From Alphaproteobacteria bacterium (GTDB lineage Bacteria; Pseudomonadota; Alphaproteobacteria; GCA-2731375): 64,000 bases of DNA. Below, piece after piece: positions 3,501 to 19,781 of this stretch (positions are counted from its first letter, which is position 1; the number at the start of each line of letters is the position of its first letter). The notes below the pieces were generated by a model that was not told the DNA's origin, searched no databases, and was given only the letters and a program-made list of their open reading frames with translations. The DNA lies in assembly GCA_021776235.1 (NCBI GenBank), contig JAJFGG010000011.1:38248-102247 (forward strand), written 5' to 3'. The position numbers and the translations under genes were made by a program.

Positions 3501-3870
3501 TCATTCGAGGCTATTGTCCCGAAACAAATTCCCATTGACCCGATCAGGACCATGTTCGCGGAGGAGGACAAAGGCGCGGCAATCAGAACCGGCCTGGTAT
3601 GCGGTCCTTATACCAACCCGCGTTGATAGGGACCCATAGAGACGCTTTGCGGGGGCTTTCGGTTGGCGTCGCGCACGCCTAACGATACCCGGTATCGCTG
3701 CGTTCAAAGTCAGAAGATTAGTCTGACGGGCAATATCGTCGATCAAGCTTACCACTTGACCAATTTTCCCACCGCTCCGGCAGTCGACGCGCCATCAAGC
3801 ACAAACGGCATCGGCGACAGCGCCAAGGGAATCATGACGGTTCCCAGAAGTGTTGCTTTTCTTTGCCCCT
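3501..3870 (-). pseudogene. Deletion-derivative remnant of the P460-repeat/cupredoxin/chemoreceptor cassette: N-terminus of the 18702..19781 protein joined to a fragment of the chemoreceptor signalling domain
   Basis: The minus strand at 3870..3781 reads MIPLALSPMPFVLDGASTAGAVGK…, matching MIPLALSSLPFALEGASAAKA of the gene at 19781. After a frameshift, 3755.. reads [20 protein letters not shown], matching [27 protein letters not shown] of the chemoreceptor at 16656..18323. Similarity is then lost. Embedded in a 700-bp AT-rich non-coding patch. Confidence 0.55.
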
Positions 3871-4152
3871 TGGCACTTCGCCAAGTTCTCATTAAAAGTG
3901 CAGATTAGGCAATAAAAGGCCCAGATAAAACGGAAACAATGAACTTCCAGCACTCAAACAATCCACGTCTTGGATTAAAACTGCTCTGAACATTGATGAA
4001 ACAATAGATATGTTTGGTCAAAGCCTTGCCAGAAACTAAAAACATTTATGTCAATGACATAAACTTTTTGTTACTGGCAAAAGCCGCTCATTATCCAAGC
4101 CAGAACAAAATAACGGTCCTAACAGTGCGATCCGTGCTCATTTACCTAATCT

Positions 4153-4494
4153 TTATTGACAGGTGATCTTTAACGACATCTGCTCAAAATATGCTGCGGA
4201 TCGAACATCAATGGCGCCAGGGTGATCAAACGTCATCACAGCCACATCTCCCGGCTTTTGAATGCCAAGGCTGAATACCTGCCCAGGGCTAAGAGAATAG
4301 ATGGCGTGTTTAGCGCTATCGGAATTCTGGAAGCGTACGGTGTCGCCACGTTTGATGTGGAGGGAATCGCGGCTGAATTTGAGGCCCTCGATCGTTATCG
4401 TGTGGACGGCAGCGGATGCGCCCTGGAATGGGGCAACAGAGAGCGCCAGTACGCCTGCACACAGGATGGATTTAAGACAATTAGGCAATAACAT
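4153..4494 (-). CDS. Secreted cupredoxin-fold protein; degenerate paralogue of the amicyanin-like gene at 18349..18705 lacking the Cys and Met copper ligands
   Basis: Signal peptide (MLLPNCLKSILCAGVLALSVAPFQGASA). KHAIYSLSPGQVFSLGIQKPGDVAVMTF aligns with RHNVYSKSAGFKYLKIKKQKPGDRDSVTI of 18349..18705. Where the paralogue has LCALHPKM this copy has MTFDHPGA, so Cys and Met are lost and His is retained. Confidence 0.55.
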   Translation of the reverse strand: MLLPNCLKSILCAGVLALSVAPFQGASAAVHTITIEGLKFSRDSLHIKRGDTVRFQNSDSAKHAIYSLSPGQVFSLGIQKPGDVAVMTFDHPGAIDVRSAAYFEQMSLKITCQ

Positions 4495-13966: not shown

Positions 13967-14730
13967 GCATCCACCCGGACGAGCGCCCCGACCACGCCAT
14001 GGCCGATGTCCTGCGTGCGCCTCTCATTGGGCTGGATCATACCCAGCGCATCAAATTGGCGCTTGCGATCCGCTTTCGTTATACCCGCCACCGCGATAGC
14101 CGCTGGATAGACCGGCATAGCCACCTGATAGAAGAAGAAGACCGGATCTGGTCACGCCGGATTGGTCAGGCCCTGCGTCTTGCCCATACCCTTTCGGGTG
14201 GTGTTACAGGGTTATTGGCGCAATATTGATTGCAGCTGAATGGGCCCGGCATCACTCTGTACTGTAAACCGGGAACCAGACATCTGATTTGTGAAGCGGC
14301 CGGCAAACGCCTTACCGCCATGGCGCGAAGCTTTGAGCAGCAGGCCCGCATCGTCTCTGAATGATCTACATACTCTAATGCTTGGGTGAAAGAGTCGGCT
14401 TATGTAGAGCCAAGCAACACCCGCACAGCCGTATCCCAGGAGGCCGCGACATTTTCCTGCCCGACATGACGGCAGATTGGAAGATTATGGAAATATTTTT
14501 TACTGAATAGAGTGGTTAATGTGACATAAGTGATTGGTTCAATTGCTCTGTTTATCGAGGCCCTAGGCGCATTTAGACTAAACACTCGATAGGGCGACAG
14601 ATGCATACAACAAGAAATTCACAAAAAATTAAATGAATACCAGTAAAAATGCGGTGAGCAAAAATATCAATGTTCCAAGTATAGCTGTATCTCTTTTCTG
14701 CTATTGCCGTTGCTCCACCGGAGATCGAAC

Positions 14731-16392
14731 ATGAACTTGCGTGCGAAACTGATTGCCGGTAGTGCGGCTGTCATTCTGTTCACGGCTTTTCAGGGCATGA
14801 TTGCCATCAACCGTATCGACCAGACGGGGCGGCTGGTTAGTGAGTTATATAATGGTCCGTTAATGGCGATCAATTTCGCCCGCTCCGCCAAGGCCAGCTT
14901 TCTGCTGCTCGACCGTGAGATGACGGTGGCCGCCGGCAAACCGGCCCTGTTGGCCTCGGAAGACTTTGTCGAGGCATTGACCGATCTGTATGAAAGTTTT
15001 CGCGGGGACCTCGAGGTGGTGCTGGAGCGGAGCGAGGATGACCGCCTCGTCAACGACCTGAACGCTGCTGGTGCCATGGCCGACCGATGGTGGAGTCTGA
15101 GCGAACAGGCGATTGCCTCGTCCGAGGGGGGTGAGGCCATGATCCCAATCGACGAATTGCGCGAAGTGGCGGTATCAACGGACGGCCAATTGGACCTGAT
15201 TATCGAATTTGCCATCGAAAACGGTTTCGATTTCGACCTCTCCGCCGAGCAGGCGGTCGCCGAAACGCGGCGTTTTACCATTTTGGTCATAATGGGCACG
15301 GTGGTTATCGGTTTTCTCATCGCTATGGTTCAGGGCCGGATGATCAGCCAGCCCGTAACCCGGATGACCCGCCGCATGGTGGCAATGGCCGCCGGCGACT
15401 ACGCTGTCGAGATTGAAGATCTCACCCGGCGCGACGAGATTGGCGAAATGGCCCGGGCGCTGGCGGTGTTCAAGGAAAATGCCCTGGATAAGGAACGCCT
15501 GGAGGCCGAGCAGGCCGAAGGTGAGCGTCGGGCCGAAGAGCAGAAGAAGACCATGATGGCTAAACTAGCGGACACGTTCGGGGCGACCATCGGCGGGGTC
15601 GTCAATACGGTCTCGGCCTCTGCAGTCGAGATGGGCGACACCGCCGTCAGCATGGCCGGCAACATGGACAAAAGCGGCAGCCGCTCTTTGGAGGTGGCCG
15701 AGGCCGCCAATCGTTCCCAAGGCAATGTCGCGACCGTTGCTTCCGCGACGGAAGAGCTGGCGAATTCGATCGATGAAATCGGCAGCCAGGTCGAGCGCTC
15801 GGCGACAAGAGCCGGCGCCGCAGTCGAGGAAGCCGACCGCTCGAACGAAACGATCAATGGTCTGGCCGGGGCGGTCGACAAGATCGGCGACGTTGTCGCG
15901 CTGATCAACGGCATCGCTGGCCAGACCAACCTGCTGGCGCTCAATGCAACCATCGAAGCGGCCCGCGCCGGCGAGGCCGGCAAGGGCTTTGCCGTGGTTG
16001 CATCCGAGGTTAAGAACCTGGCCAATCAGACCGCGACGGCGACGGAAGAGATCGCGCATCAGATCGACGCGGTACAGGGGGCGACGGGCGACGCGGTGGC
16101 GGGCATTGAAGGGATCGGCAGGACGATCCGTCAGATGAGCGAGATTTCCGCCGAGATCTCCGCTAGAGTGGAGCAGCAGCGTGCCGCGATTGGTGAAATC
16201 GCCCGCAATGCAAGCGCCGTCAGCGACGATGCCACATCGGTCTTGCACAGCGTTACCGAACTGTCGCAATCCTCGGCCATGTCCTACGGCGCCGCCATCA
16301 ACGTGCTTTGGGCCTCGCAGGATATACAAAAACCCATGGCCGAACTGCGCGGCAGCGTGGAAACCTTCCTGCAGGACGTTCGCACTGCCTGA
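14731..16392 (+). CDS. Methyl-accepting chemotaxis protein (chemoreceptor) with periplasmic helical sensor, HAMP and signalling domains
   Basis: Start at ATG 14731 (GGAG 7 nt upstream; the track uses TTG 14704). Signalling domain [44 protein letters not shown]. Two TM segments. Confidence 0.9.
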
Positions 16393-16655
16393 TTGCGGTC
16401 AGCACAAACAAGACCCGATCCGCCAGGGCATATTGACAACGCTGGACATTATGGGCGCGCTGTCGCCCCTATCCGGAAAGGTCACTCTGTAAAGAGTATG
16501 GTAGCCAATATCGCCACCGGATCGAAGAGGATACCTGGAGCGGGCGCTCCTTTGGCGAGCGGATTGTTGGCGTTCGAGATCGGCATCTCCTGCAACATGT
16601 TCAATAGCAAATCGGCCTTTGGGCGCCGCCAAGACCAACCTGCGCCGGAATGCCT

Positions 16656-18323
16656 TCAGACAGCGCGGATCTTCTGCAGGAACTGGTTGATCTGGCTGTC
16701 CAGATCCGCCGAATGCTGAAGCAGGCCGTCAGCTGCGCCCAGGACTTCGTGTGTCATCTCGTTGGTCCGGCTAACCGCCTCGGCGACCTGACCCATGCCG
16801 GCACCGACTTCGCGCGTGCTATCCGCCGCGCGCCGGACGTGACGGCTGATCACATCCGTGGCCTCCGCCTGCTGTTCACCAGACTGGGCAATGGCGGAGG
16901 CGTTCTCGTCCAAAGTCTCAATGGTACCGTTGATGCCGCGAATGGCCGCGACGGTTTCTTCGGTCTGGCTTTTTATGACAGCGATCAGGGCATCAATCTC
17001 GTGCGTGGAACCGGCGGTTTGATTGGCCAGGTTTTTCACTTCCCCCGCGACCACGGCAAAGCCTTTGCCTGCCTCGCCCGCCCTGGCCGCCTCGATTGTC
17101 GCGTTCAAGGCCAGCAGATTGGTTTGACGGGCAATGTCGTCGATAAGGCTCACCACCTGACCGATTTTTCCCACTGCTTCGTCCAAACCGCCCACTTTCG
17201 CGCTGATTTCCCGCGCTGCCGCGACCGCGCCACCGGTGACGTTGGCTGAATTCGATGCCCGGTCTCCGACTTCACGGATGGAGGTGGTTAAGCCTTCGGC
17301 TTCGCTGGCAGCCGATTGCACATTCTCGGTCGCCTGCTCGGCCGCCGTCGCCACGGAGTCTGATTGCTGAGAGGTCTTTCGCGCGGTGTCGTCCAGGCCG
17401 GCAGCTATCTCGCGCATGTGACCTGACGCTTGGGAAATTGCCGCCGCGACCTGACGGATCGTAGCCTCGAATTCGGCAGCTATTCGCTCTCTGGCTTCAC
17501 GACGTTGTTCGATGGCCAGTGTCTCAGCCCTAACCTGTTCGCCCTGCAGGCGTTCGACTTTCAAGGCATTTTCCCGGAACACGTCAATGGCACGGGCCAT
17601 ATCCCCCAATTCATCACTCTTCTCGCGGTAGGGAATCTCGCCATCGAAGTCACCCTCCGAAAGCTGTGTCATGCGGCTGGATATGGCATTCATGGGGCGC
17701 CCAAGATAACGACTGATCATGAATACGATGACCATCCCAAGAGACAAGACAAGCACGGCACCGATGATCTGTATGTTCAGGGTTTGCTTGGCGGCGGCGT
17801 CGGCATCTTCGCGGAAGTTAAAACCCTGTTCAGTGGTAAATTCGACCAGCAAGGAAAGGCTTTCCTCGGCCTCGGATAACAACGCTTGTTTCTCGGCCTT
17901 CAATATATCCGCGGCAGCGGCATCGGAAATGTCCGCCGCGATAATCCGCTCGGCCAATACATGCCATTGTTCTAGCAACGCCAGGGTTTCGTCAATTACC
18001 TCCCAAATCTCCTGGTCCGCGACCCGCTCTCGGACGACCGCAAGATCGTCGCGGATCTCACTTTCCAATTCGGCGGCAGCCTCCTGGCGTTCCGCCCGCA
18101 AATCGGTGTTGGCGGTGAAAAGGATCTGGGTTATCTCGCGATCGCTGCGGACAAAATTGGTCAGGGCGTTGCGCGCGAAACTGATCGATAACAATGGCTT
18201 ATCATACATTTCAGCGGTCAGCAGGCTGACCCGCAACAGGCCATCCATGGCAAATCCGCTTGCAACCGCAGTCATCACAACCACACTCGCCACACCGATA
18301 ACAAGTTTGTTTCCAATACGCAT
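16656..18323 (-). CDS. Methyl-accepting chemotaxis protein; paralogue of 14731..16392; last gene of the P460/cupredoxin cassette
   Basis: [47 protein letters not shown]-terminal sensor domain similar to that of the convergent chemoreceptor ([20 protein letters not shown] versus [20 protein letters not shown]). Confidence 0.9.
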
Positions 18324-18348
18324 ACAGTACTAATCCGAGAATCAACCG

Positions 18349-18705
18349 CTACTTGGTTATCACAACGGTTAATTTCATCTTCGGATGCAAAGCGCACAGA
18401 ATAACGGCGGTGCCTGCGTTTTTGATCGTCACCGAGTCCCGATCTCCGGGCTTTTGCTTCTTGATCTTCAGGTATTTGAACCCGGCGGACTTGCTGTAAA
18501 CATTGTGGCGCTTGCGCTTTTCCTCGTTGACGAAAGTCAGGGTATCGCCAACCTTGGCGTTGACTTTTTTTGGCACAAACTTTTTACCCTTTTGGGAAAT
18601 GACAATGTCCGCGGCCACGGCTTCGGTTGTGAACAATGTTCCGGTCATGCATAGGGCAACCAGGGTGATGGCTGGAACCAAAGTTTTGATATCAAACTGT
18701 CTCAT
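18349..18705 (-). CDS. Amicyanin/pseudoazurin-like blue copper protein (cupredoxin), periplasmic
   Basis: Signal peptide. Type-1 copper ligand set: His in RHNVYS, and Cys-x2-His-x2-Met in CALHPKM (compare the amicyanin CTPHPFM motif). Start ATG overlaps the upstream gene's stop (ATGA), suggesting translational coupling. Confidence 0.75.
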   Translation of the reverse strand: MRQFDIKTLVPAITLVALCMTGTLFTTEAVAADIVISQKGKKFVPKKVNAKVGDTLTFVNEEKRKRHNVYSKSAGFKYLKIKKQKPGDRDSVTIKNAGTAVILCALHPKMKLTVVITK

Positions 18706-19781
18706 TTCGCACCTACCCGGTATTCGTCCGCCATAAACATCATGAAGTCGTCGTCGTCGGCGCGCATATGGCAGTCGTTACAAAATTTCTGTATGCCCTG
18801 ATCGGCGCGGACCATTCCGCTGGGCATAATCATGGCATAGTGCCAGCCGCCTGAATCAGGCAAGGCACCCTGTTGTTTCTTTTCCATGATGAATAACGGC
18901 CCGACGCCGTTGCGTCCGTCGTGATGCTGGACGAAGCCTTCCTTGGCAACGATCGAACCTACGGGCATTTTGCTCAGATCCTCGTAGTTCCGATAGACCG
19001 GCGCGGCCACGGCGTTGGCGTAGTTCAACAGATAACGGGAGCCGTGCGCCTCCGCCGGATAGGGACTGATGCTAAAACGCATCCAGCCACGGAATTCCCT
19101 GGCCACGGGATTGTCTGATTTCAAGTAAGCCCGGCGGATATCATCTTTCAGGCAGTCATAAACAGCCGAGGCCTCCGCGTCCGTTAGCATGGGTGGTTCG
19201 ACGGCACATGGATTGGCCCCGCCGCAGGGATTGCAGGGGTTGCAGGCCTTTTTGGCGGCGCAGGGATTGCACGGGCCGCACGCCTTCTTGGCGGCGCAGG
19301 GGTTGCACGGGCCACAGGCCTTCTTGGCGGCGCACGGATTGCACGCGCCGCAGGCCTTTTTGGCGGCACACGGGTTGCACGCACCACAGGCCTTCTTGGC
19401 GGCACACGGGTTGCAGGCGCCGCAGGCCTTCTTGGCGGCACACGGGTTGCAGGCACCACAACCCTTTTTAACCGCGCAAGGATTTGCTGCCGCTTGTTGC
19501 AGACGCGGCACCAGGCATTTGTCCGAGCCTTTGCCAGCGGCGCATGGGTTAGAGGCACCGCAGGGATTACAGGGGTTGGTGGCCTTGCGCGGACCGCACG
19601 GATTGCAGGCACCGCATTTCGCGGCCAGCCGCAGGGCTGTTTTCGGCAATGCCGTCTGATTGACCCCTGTGGCTTGTCCCGGCGCTTTGGCTGCCGACGC
19701 GCCCTCAAGCGCAAATGGCAGCGAAGACAGGGCCAAGGGAATCATGACAGAGCCCAAAAGTCGTGCTTTTCTATTCCTCAT
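18702..19781 (-). CDS. Secreted fusion protein: signal peptide, then about 8 tandem 12-aa Cys-rich repeats (NPCAAKKACGAC), then a C-terminal cytochrome P460/c'-beta-like haem domain (CNDCH)
   Basis: The repeat region has about 30 Cys as overlapping CxxC motifs. The C-terminal ~150 aa (…GWMRFSI…YRNYEDL…GSIVAKEG…GPLFIMEKK…GGWHYAMIMPSG…FCNDCHMRADDDDF) has the P460-like layout, with the single CXXCH near the C-terminus. Family call by pattern only. Confidence 0.65.
   Translation of the reverse strand: MRNRKARLLGSVMIPLALSSLPFALEGASAAKAPGQATGVNQTALPKTALRLAAKCGACNPCGPRKATNPCNPCGASNPCAAGKGSDKCLVPRLQQAAANPCAVKKGCGACNPCAAKKACGACNPCAAKKACGACNPCAAKKACGACNPCAAKKACGPCNPCAAKKACGPCNPCAAKKACNPCNPCGGANPCAVEPPMLTDAEASAVYDCLKDDIRRAYLKSDNPVAREFRGWMRFSISPYPAEAHGSRYLLNYANAVAAPVYRNYEDLSKMPVGSIVAKEGFVQHHDGRNGVGPLFIMEKKQQGALPDSGGWHYAMIMPSGMVRADQGIQKFCNDCHMRADDDDFMMFMADEYRVGAK
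19243..19460. repeat. Tandem 36-bp DNA repeat, about 6–7 near-identical copies, inside the CDS at 18702..19781
   Basis: Units such as ggccttcttggcggcgcacgggttgcacgcgccgca are repeated head-to-tail with a few SNPs. All six track frames show periodic pseudo-ORFs here (AFLAAQGLHGP… etc.). Confidence 0.85.

Follow-up and report, generated by a model that had tools for sequence, protein, structure and literature searches.

We analyzed a 64,000-nucleotide stretch of DNA, referred to here as the window, from an Alphaproteobacteria bacterium (GenBank assembly GCA_021776235.1, contig JAJFGG010000011.1, positions 38,248 to 102,247). Three adjacent open reading frames (ORFs) on its minus strand encode a secreted haem protein, a cupredoxin and a methyl-accepting chemotaxis protein (MCP), referred to as genes 1, 2 and 3. 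Our analysis of the locus and its homologues indicates a putative periplasmic three-component sensory module, the products of which are predicted to meet in the periplasm. The conserved core of the module is the cupredoxin and the four-helix-bundle (4HB) sensor domain of its partner. The haem gene and the output are interchangeable. An earlier description of the three genes, made from the same letters without database searches (the sequence-only reading), was correct in every checkable detail, including the ORFs, their junctions and their domains. The features of the genes are as follows, with protein positions in amino acids (aa).

18702-19781, minus strand: gene 1, secreted Cys-rich-repeat::cytochrome P460-type haem c protein, 359 aa (ORF and Pfam)
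19689-19781, minus strand: predicted Sec signal peptide of gene 1, aa 1-31, MRNRKARLLGSVMIPLALSSLPFALEGASA followed by A at the cleavage site (sequence inspection; homologues have equivalent N-termini and AxA sites)
19206-19619, minus strand: Cys-rich region of gene 1, aa 55-192, CxxCxxC triads in 12-aa units NPCAAKKACGAC (Tandem Repeats Finder and AlphaFold2)
19467-19532, minus strand: conserved non-repeat insert, aa 84-105, containing SDKCLVPRLQQAA (conservation and AlphaFold2)
18705-19199, minus strand: predicted haem domain of P460/c'-β fold, aa 195-359 (AlphaFold2 and Foldseek)
18942-18944, minus strand: Lys280 codon, candidate haem cross-link lysine (invariant in 64 of 64 homologues; alignment to N. 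europaea P460)
18768-18782, minus strand: CNDCH haem c attachment motif, C334, C337 and H338 (invariant in 64 of 64 homologues)
18349-18705, minus strand: gene 2, amicyanin/MauL-like type-1 cupredoxin, 118 aa, predicted signal peptide at aa ~1-32 (Pfam, AlphaFold2 and Foldseek)
18505-18507, minus strand: fourth Cu ligand, H67 (subfamily conservation)
18376-18396, minus strand: Cu ligand loop C104-A-L-H107-P-K-M110 (subfamily conservation)
16656-18323, minus strand: gene 3, MCP, 555 aa, 25 bp past gene 2 (Pfam)
17787-18233, minus strand: periplasmic 4HB sensor, aa ~31-179, of the cupredoxin-linked subfamily (hydropathy and conservation)
17568-17717, minus strand: HAMP domain, aa 203-252 (Pfam, 41.3 bits)
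16755-17267, minus strand: MCP signalling domain, aa 353-523 (Pfam, 121.8 bits)
16500-16518, minus strand: terminator-like hairpin, probable operon end (consensus scan alone)

The C-terminal domain of the gene 1 protein had been read as a cytochrome P460 or c'-β haem domain, and profile, fold and conservation all agree with this. It matches Pfam Cytochrome_P460 (PF16694) at aa 229-347 with 31.4 bits against a cut-off of 27. A homologue at another locus, L042, scores 33.5 bits. The AlphaFold2 model of the domain has a predicted local distance difference test score (pLDDT) above 90. Its top matches in the PDB by Foldseek are the cytochromes c'-β 7EAD and 7S5O and the cytochromes P460 6HIU and 2JE2, at a probability of 1.0, and the top 18 matches are all P460 or c'-β structures (probability 0.89-1.0). 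The CxxCH motif is invariant in the 64 homologues aligned, and 59 of the 60 top homologues contain a single one near the C-terminus. The blocks YRNY, GSIVAKEG, GGWHYAMIMPSG and CNDCH are present in the protein.

The lysine that is cross-linked to the haem distinguishes P460 from c'-β (PMC11928373). The cross-link lysine is Lys70 in N. europaea P460 (NeP460), Lys78 in M. capsulatus P460 (McP460) and Lys106 in N. sp. AL212, and the c'-β proteins have Met79 or Phe61 (PMC11928373, Table 2). In a profile-profile alignment by hhalign (probability 83.6%), for which the NeP460 sequence was identical to 2JE2, Lys280 of gene 1 (GSIVA-K-EG) is aligned to Lys70 of NeP460 (GTVTV-K-EL). Independently, HMMER places Lys280 on a methionine of N. 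europaea c'-β, taken as Met79. Because an invariant lysine is found at the cross-link position, the haem domain is assigned by this alignment to the P460 type rather than the c'-β type.

Gene 1 contains 33 Cys, and 30 of them are located upstream of the haem domain, close to the count of about 30 in 12-aa repeats given in the sequence-only reading. The repeat array encodes seven full NPCAAKKACGAC units and additional partial units. At the DNA level, the tandem array spans 19223-19469. Tandem Repeats Finder reported a 36-bp period with 5.8 copies at 19242-19451 and 89% matches, together with related 72- and 108-bp periods, and the 36-bp copies are ~90% identical to one another. The repeats are predicted to be disordered, with pLDDT below 50 in a model built on 64 sequences. 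The insert SxKCxVPRLxxAA is located between two such disordered blocks and is predicted to be ordered (pLDDT 86-91), with helices at 92-105. Its residues C89, P92, R93 and L94 are kept in nearly all homologues. Both C89 (58 of 58 where present) and C210 in the haem domain (63 of 64) are near-invariant, and the two could form a disulfide.

The number of repeats varies among close orthologues, which have 27-40 Cys and 330-401 aa. Orthologues that are 65-75% identical overall (L001-L006 and L019) differ by up to 71 aa in length and by up to 13 Cys, indicating that the array expands and contracts quickly. The spacing CGxCxPC-x5-CGxCxxC is that of the Zn-binding zf-CXXC domain, with sub-threshold matches only. 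Homology of the repeats to zf-CXXC or metallothionein was rejected; the score is 16.7 bits against a cut-off of 26.5, the TET3 CXXC structure in the PDB is matched with E = 0.13-0.28, and only the Cys spacing is common. The metallothionein-like role suggested for the repeats in the sequence-only reading would be based on their Cys density and spacing.

The N-termini of the gene 1 and gene 2 products each contain a basic n-region and a hydrophobic core, followed by ASA before AK and by AVA before AD, respectively. By inspection and hydropathy, both look like Sec-exported proteins. The gene 2 product matches Pfam Copper-bind with 32.1 bits against a cut-off of 21.2 and is modeled with pLDDT above 95 for aa 33-118. 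The motif RHNVYS...CALHPKM is present as quoted in the sequence-only reading, and the complete His/Cys/His/Met ligand set of a type-1 copper protein that it had noted corresponds to H67, C104, H107 and M110. All 39 subfamily members compared have H67, H107 and M110, and at least 90% of them have C104. Q38, F43, Q84 and P86 are further conserved residues of the cupredoxin. The closest structures by Foldseek are amicyanins, with a TM-score of 0.72, 30-32% identity and the same short C-x2-H-x2-M loop. Assignment as amicyanin proper was rejected, as the equivalog model TIGR02657, the best NCBIfam match, gives 29.6 bits against a cut-off of 110.2. Matches to the profile of this subfamily (P0182-P0260) include many proteins of 400-1150 aa with 3-9 tandem cupredoxin domains, some with CARDB or multicopper-oxidase domains; one of them, P0217, is a cytochrome c-cupredoxin fusion.

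Gene 3 contains 4HB_MCP_1 (38.9 bits), HAMP (41.3 bits) and MCPsignal (121.8 bits), all above the Pfam cut-offs. Hydropathy analysis revealed hydrophobic segments at about aa 6-30 and 180-209, which places aa ~31-179, containing the 4HB domain, in the periplasm. The chemoreceptor with a periplasmic helical sensor seen in the sequence-only reading thus has the expected domains and a two-transmembrane topology. Conserved residues in the sensor are D41, L44, I47, A50, R51, A53, D93, L94, R100, W120, G167, F168 and R171. R100 and W120 (numbering of the gene 3 MCP) are present in 100% of 62 cupredoxin-linked sensors. The partners carry the motifs YDxPLMxINxARxA in helix 1 and LVExxxxEGFxFR in helix 4.

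Genes 1 and 2 share an ATGA stop/start overlap at 18702-18705, and a 25-bp spacer (18324-18348) separates genes 2 and 3; both junctions had been read correctly before. Based on this spacing, we infer that the three genes are co-transcribed as an operon. A consensus scan found no terminator-like site within the cluster and two on the minus strand just past the MCP stop codon (16518-16500 and 16427-16414), all such matches being weak and no more frequent in the region than in shuffled sequence. A promoter scan found no sigma-70-like promoter upstream of gene 1, and an inverted-repeat search of its 5' intergenic region found a single short palindrome. An Rfam scan of the window gave no matches.

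A profile scan of JGI metagenomes identified at least 364 relatives of the cupredoxin. The best 80, together with loci from the other searches, make up a census of 91 loci. Many of these are short and some are related to each other, which was handled by clustering. An adjoining protein with a homologous 4HB sensor is found at 71 of the 91 loci. In 52 cases, the sensor gene is located on the same strand 1-130 bp downstream of the cupredoxin gene, and in 19 it is divergent and 8-190 bp upstream. At most of the remaining 20 loci, the contig breaks off. When the cupredoxins were de-replicated by single-linkage clustering, a sensor was present in 52 of 58 informative clusters at 90% identity and in 18 of 23 at 70%. 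The similarity among the partner proteins extends beyond the transmembrane or HAMP regions, because a query containing the periplasmic segment alone matches 67 of the 71.

The outputs of the partner proteins are diverse. According to Pfam, 4HB_MCP_1, usually with HAMP, is combined with MCPsignal, HisKA-HATPase-REC-REC, HisKA-HATPase-REC-Hpt, or GAF- or PAS-GGDEF-EAL. The sensor and HAMP regions of the GGDEF-EAL protein at L068 are ~60% identical to those of MCPs whose cupredoxins are 65-75% identical to the L068 cupredoxin. The output at this locus seems to have been replaced recently, with the sensor and the cupredoxin kept. The triad of P460, cupredoxin and sensor also occurs with kinase outputs (L042 and L102). 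The divergence of the cupredoxins is correlated with that of the sensors (r = 0.95; Mantel 0/2000). This correlation shows co-inheritance and is no proof of contact.

Searches from the sensor side gave few matches. In 7.3 Gb of plasmid sequence, tblastn with sensor queries, an insensitive method here, gave one significant match, in Neorhizobium sp. EC2-8, directly beside a cupredoxin match. A reverse search with the sensor by word-indexed protein search gave two close matches. Plasmid pTT6-4 of the cultured Skermanella sp. TT6 has genes for a "cytochrome c peroxidase", a cupredoxin and an MCP, in that order. The emphasis of the sequence-only reading needs adjustment; the order of P460, cupredoxin and chemoreceptor does recur, but the constant pairing is that of the cupredoxin with the 4HB sensor. 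The sequence-only reading did not recognize the architecture as a described system, and we likewise found no account of a cupredoxin-sensor module in the open-access literature searched.

The haem partner differs between modules. The gene upstream of the cupredoxin encodes a di-haem protein of the CCP_MauG family at 39 loci and a P460 fusion at 14. In the divergent GGDEF-EAL class, the di-haem gene is located ~1.5 kb away, behind a membrane-protein gene. Some loci have no haem gene, including L033 and L044, where the order is REC, cupredoxin, kinase. In a neighbor-joining tree of the cupredoxins, the P460-linked members are found in one broad clade with both MCP and kinase outputs; the haem partner in this clade is P460, MauG-type or absent. 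At L022 (188-6800), genes identified by eye as an aa3-type cytochrome c oxidase operon (II, I, assembly protein, III) are followed by a cupredoxin and a 4HB MCP. This MCP has an extra C-terminal domain, and no haem enzyme gene lies between the oxidase operon and the cupredoxin-MCP pair.

The best NCBIfam model for the di-haem partners is TTQ_mauG (TIGR03791), with 348-376 bits against a cut-off of 443.85; the di-haem protein of a genuine mau cluster, at 398.8 bits, also falls below this cut-off. The second-best family is MbnH. Pairwise scores of the partner are higher with solved peroxidases (182 bits for MacA) than with Paracoccus MauG (80 bits). In all 42 di-haem partners (L016, L026, L028, L037, L043, L074, L099, L100 and 34 others), a tyrosine occupies the position of the methionine in the KIMGS motif of MacA, the residue that we take to ligate the high-potential haem axially in peroxidases. 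MauG has a tyrosine in place of this methionine. An ordinary peroxidase was considered as the partner and rejected, as the MauG model is the best match and the tyrosine is invariant at the Met-ligand position. These sequences point to a large uncharacterized group of putative MauG-type enzymes outside methylamine clusters.

A mau cluster of Indioceanicola has the order mauA-mauJ-...-di-haem-cupredoxin-napG/H-like, which is the mauG-L-M-N arrangement. The cupredoxin at the mauL position is 42% identical to the L016 cupredoxin used as the query, and one member of the cupredoxin cluster has the NCBI name 'methylamine utilization protein'. We call the subfamily MauL-like because a member follows the di-haem gene in this arrangement.

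Homologues of the full-length gene 1 product are numerous, with at least 1065 at E ≤ 0.001 among 8000 candidates scored. Among 120 matches listed, the source names are "hypothetical", none, or once "cytochrome P460 family protein". Matches in genomes come from metagenome-assembled genomes (MAGs) of marine Alphaproteobacteria/Rhodospirillaceae, in samples such as Saanich Inlet, the Arabian Sea and the deep ocean. The N-terminus of each of the 60 top homologues resembles a signal peptide, and these proteins contain 19-62 Cys, most of them within NPC motifs. We found no description of the Cys-repeat::P460 fusion in the open-access literature, and a 2025 review of P460 and c'-β mentions neither fusions nor copper partners (PMC11928373).

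Relatives at 65-75% identity (L001-L007) have all three genes with the same spacing and also the neighboring aldolase gene. Their synteny was rejected as evidence of a functional link, since the unrelated aldolase gene is equally conserved. Of seven distant P460-fusion homologues examined, one (L102) is accompanied by a cupredoxin and a sensor, the gene order being P460 fusion, cupredoxin, 4HB hybrid histidine kinase. In place of these partners, four others have a divergent FGE-sulfatase gene, and the last two have neither. We therefore dropped P460 as the anchor of the system, the P460-centered census having given one module. Most Cys-repeat::P460 homologues lie outside cupredoxin-sensor modules. 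The linkage of P460 to the chemoreceptor suggested by the sequence-only reading recurs in other lineages, but P460 is not the conserved partner of the chemoreceptor. The copy number of the repeats is hypervariable, L013 has few of them (14 Cys), and the MauG-type modules have none; coupling to the receptor is therefore unlikely to depend on them. They probably form a flexible extension of the haem protein, metal- or thiol-redox-active, that the signalling link does not require.

Other arrangements were observed around the P460 fusions. At L009/L010, L011, L012 and L103, the gene divergent from the Cys-repeat::P460 gene contains an FGE-sulfatase domain (PF03781). Three of the FGE-sulfatase loci continue with DUF6969, MsrB (SelR) and HAD hydrolase genes, and DUF6969 is also found at L008. 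The sequence C-x-V-P-R-L in the insert of the repeat region loosely resembles, and does not match, the motif C-x-P-x-R, which we take to be the FGE recognition motif. A profile search found no FGE-sulfatase, DUF6969, MsrB or HAD genes in the window. At L104 (5001-6840), a second, shorter P460-family gene (214 aa) is located 76 bp past the Cys-repeat::P460 gene. At L015 (1295-4978), an IS1595-family transposase gene is located between a split 4HB MCP gene on the opposite strand and a 5'-truncated P460 gene with its cupredoxin, which looks like a module broken by insertion.

The window contains two additional loci related to the three-gene cluster.

14704-16392, plus strand: convergent paralogous MCP, 562 aa, same sensor subfamily, without its own cupredoxin (Pfam MCPsignal and HAMP; sensor similarity)
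3690-4494, minus strand: apparent relic of a second module (cupredoxin profile, 77.7 bits; tblastn fragments)

The sensor of the second MCP is 31% identical to that of the operon MCP (E 4e-20) and 29% identical to the L016 sensor (E 1e-18). It is closer to this soil-derived L016 sensor than the sensor of the operon MCP is. The second MCP is missing at the corresponding position in the close relatives L001-L006. In the relic, the ORF at 4153-4494 belongs to the same cupredoxin subfamily, but its ligand loop (...VRSAAYFEQM...) no longer contains the Cys and the His. A fragment at 3764-3865 is 68% identical to aa 3-36 of the P460 fusion, covering the signal peptide, and a fragment at 3690-3770 in another frame is 89% identical to aa 385-411 of the MCP, at the hairpin tip. 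The three pieces together look like a duplicated operon with a large internal deletion. The genes flanking the cluster are unrelated to it and encode an ABC solute-binding protein, a class II aldolase, a DUF952 protein, an SDR, an ArfB-like RF-1 domain protein, a NIPSNAP protein and a gluconolactonase. No MauG-type gene is present in the window; the methylamine dehydrogenase genes mauA and mauB were not searched for.

We propose that the redox state of the cupredoxin is set by the haem enzyme and read by the 4HB domain, an interpretation of the gene arrangements that we hold tentatively, at somewhat below an even chance. The cupredoxin would be the signal-bearing partner of the 4HB domain, as periplasmic binding proteins or H-NOX proteins are for their receptors. 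A small molecule would react with the haem enzyme, and electrons would pass between this enzyme and the cupredoxin. In the window, the enzyme would be the P460 protein, its substrate most plausibly hydroxylamine (NH2OH) or NO, and the high-potential Cu site would be the electron acceptor. NH2OH oxidation by P460 needs an external oxidant (PMC11928373), and a type-1 Cu site would be a reasonable acceptor. At most other loci, a MauG-type di-haem enzyme, probably driven by peroxide or O2, would oxidize Cu(I). The Cu(I)/Cu(II) state, or possibly the copper-loading state, may alter the binding of the cupredoxin to the 4HB domain. The changed binding would shift HAMP and kinase-control signalling, and hence CheA activity and swimming, and the receptor would report the flux of oxidant or reductant to CheA. 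N-oxides and metal, as named in the sequence-only reading, are candidate signals.

Several observations weigh against this proposal. The distal carboxylate is Glu96 in NeP460 and Asp102 in McP460. The hhalign alignment puts Glu96 in a gap, and an alternative register would place E300 of gene 1 (conserved in 57 of 64) there; the carboxylate needed for NH2OH oxidation is thus only ambiguously aligned. No fusion of the cupredoxin to a 4HB sensor, P460 or MauG was found among the best 150 matches of an exhaustive profile search, which are mostly proteins with 3-9 tandem cupredoxin domains and include one cytochrome c fusion and one multicopper-oxidase fusion. The correlated divergence is expected for any two co-inherited genes. 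P460 and cupredoxin genes occur without a sensor at L013 and L014, as does the related mauG-mauL pair in the Indioceanicola mau cluster. Conversely, the second MCP in the window has a sensor of the subfamily and no cupredoxin. Finally, a plain electron-transfer pair would also consist of a cupredoxin encoded beside a haem enzyme.

One alternative is that the genes are co-expressed without direct coupling, with the haem protein and the cupredoxin forming an ordinary detoxification or electron-transfer pair (for NH2OH/NO or peroxide) and the sensor detecting a ligand of its own. Joint expression of enzyme and behavior would then be the sole reason for the genes staying together. Cupredoxins are established electron partners of periplasmic haem enzymes, haem-cupredoxin pairs lack a sensor at L100 as well as at L013 and L014, and the paralogous sensor in the window fits the same picture. 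A comparable arrangement is found in C. jejuni, where docA, encoding a di-haem cytochrome c peroxidase (CcP) homologue, is located immediately upstream of docB, encoding the MCP Tlp10, with no direct coupling described (PMC3156733). We nevertheless consider this alternative fairly unlikely. It leaves unexplained why the cupredoxin keeps one sensor subfamily while outputs change and the haem gene is swapped or lost, and MCPs and GGDEF-EAL proteins do not regulate the transcription of their neighbors. Sensing of copper or another thiophilic metal is very improbable in our estimate. Here the sensor would read apo versus holo cupredoxin, and the Cys repeats would buffer or deliver Cu(I) or a soft metal. 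The 30 Cys in CxxCxxC triads with zf-CXXC-like spacing (sub-threshold matches only), the predicted disorder resembling that of apo-metallothioneins and the loss of ligands in the relic cupredoxin are consistent with it. However, most modules have a MauG-type partner without a Cys-rich region, and a cupredoxin-linked P460 can have few repeats, as at L013 with its 14 Cys. Copper-homeostasis genes are absent from the nine window ORFs scanned near the cluster, the remainder of the window being unannotated. Moreover, the Cys residues of Sec-exported proteins are normally oxidized to disulfides.

A role in cofactor formation or maturation is, in our view, quite unlikely. The haem protein would be a protein-modifying oxidase that installs or re-oxidizes a redox group on the sensor, for example at Trp120, or on the cupredoxin; the cupredoxin would be the electron carrier of the oxidase, and the sensor a redox-active receptor. 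The TTQ_mauG scores of the di-haem partners, 348-376 bits compared to 399 for the genuine mau-cluster protein, are in line with this, as are the tyrosine at the MacA Met position in 42 of 42 partners and the cupredoxin at the mauL position in Indioceanicola, 42% identical to the L016 query. The second-best family of the partners is that of MbnH, an enzyme that forms kynurenine in the protein MbnP. All 62 cupredoxin-linked sensors have Trp120 and Arg100. On the other hand, Trp120 is equally invariant in modules without a nearby haem gene (L022, L033, L044 and L057), and P460 proteins are not known to modify other proteins (PMC11928373). A receptor class with a protein-derived redox group, in which a high-valent haem partner (MauG-type, or P460 in the window) would oxidize or cycle Trp120 or the cupredoxin and the cupredoxin would shuttle electrons, is distinctly improbable from these sequences. 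If it existed, such a receptor would answer oxidant flux (peroxide, NO, NH2OH) by covalent redox chemistry instead of by binding a ligand, and MauL would gain a function.

Read as proposed, with the cupredoxin reporting to the 4HB domain, the module suggests that bacteria may adjust swimming, kinase or c-di-GMP signalling to the state of a copper protein. Besides marine Rhodospirillaceae MAGs, the cultured Skermanella and Neorhizobium carry the module, which combines one sensor type with three kinds of output. We know of no ligands for most 4HB chemoreceptors and sensor kinases, and periplasmic sensing of oxidants and nitrogen oxides is, to our knowledge, poorly understood. We know of no copper electron-transfer protein that serves as a sensory partner, and the cupredoxin would be the first if it carries the signal. 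The module also hints at what MauL-like proteins, and MauG-type enzymes found outside methylamine clusters, might do, and it may bear on DocA-DocB, for which no cupredoxin is described. Independently, the Cys-repeat::P460 family, with more than 1000 members, all unnamed, would take P460-type haem chemistry into marine heterotrophs of oxygen-minimum waters. Such a spread is relevant to the turnover of NH2OH, NO and N2O.

The individual components can be compared with known systems. Cytochrome P460 (CytL; N. europaea 2JE2/2JE3, M. capsulatus 6HIU) and cytochrome c'-β (6HIH, 7S5O, 7EAD) share the β-sheet fold and the C-terminal CxxCH with the gene 1 domain. Like the P460 enzymes, this domain has a lysine at the cross-link position and is predicted to be periplasmic. 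Unlike known members of either group, to which it is 13-23% identical, it is preceded by a Cys-rich region of ~140 residues, a feature unmentioned in PMC11928373. It also differs from known P460 in being encoded with a cupredoxin and a receptor, and its family is found in marine heterotrophic Alphaproteobacteria MAGs, whereas known P460 proteins are in nitrifiers or methanotrophs. For the cupredoxin, amicyanin (MauC) is the nearest structure and has the same short C-x2-H-x2-M loop, but the equivalog score is far below its cut-off (29.6 compared to 110.2 bits).

Comparisons can also be made at the level of signalling. H-NOX and NosP are stand-alone haem sensors that are encoded beside histidine kinases, diguanylate cyclases or MCPs and control them. 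The module is similar in having a small metalloprotein beside signalling proteins with interchangeable outputs. It differs in that H-NOX and NosP use haem rather than copper, bind gas directly, have no third, enzyme component and belong to unrelated families. In MBP-Tar, LuxP-LuxQ and TorT-TorS, a periplasmic sensor reads a separate soluble periplasmic protein. These partners are solute-binding proteins and report ligand occupancy, whereas the partner proposed here is a redox metalloprotein and would report electron flow. In energy taxis through Aer and Tsr, the redox state of electron carriers, rather than a nutrient, steers behavior. Aer uses a FAD-PAS domain in the cytoplasm, and the carrier proposed here would instead be a copper protein in the periplasm that is dedicated to this task.

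Among known gene arrangements, mauG-mauL and C. jejuni docA-docB come closest. We know of no function for MauL. In other loci, the cupredoxin gene directly follows a MauG-type di-haem gene, as mauL follows mauG; in the window it follows the P460 gene, and the partner is a receptor. The docA-docB pair likewise places a di-haem CcP homologue by an MCP, with no cupredoxin described there. The two CcPs of C. jejuni make no contribution to H2O2 resistance (PMC3156733). Although the domains of the module all belong to known families, the sequence comparisons suggest that its new element is a copper electron carrier acting as the accessory protein in metalloprotein-coupled sensing.

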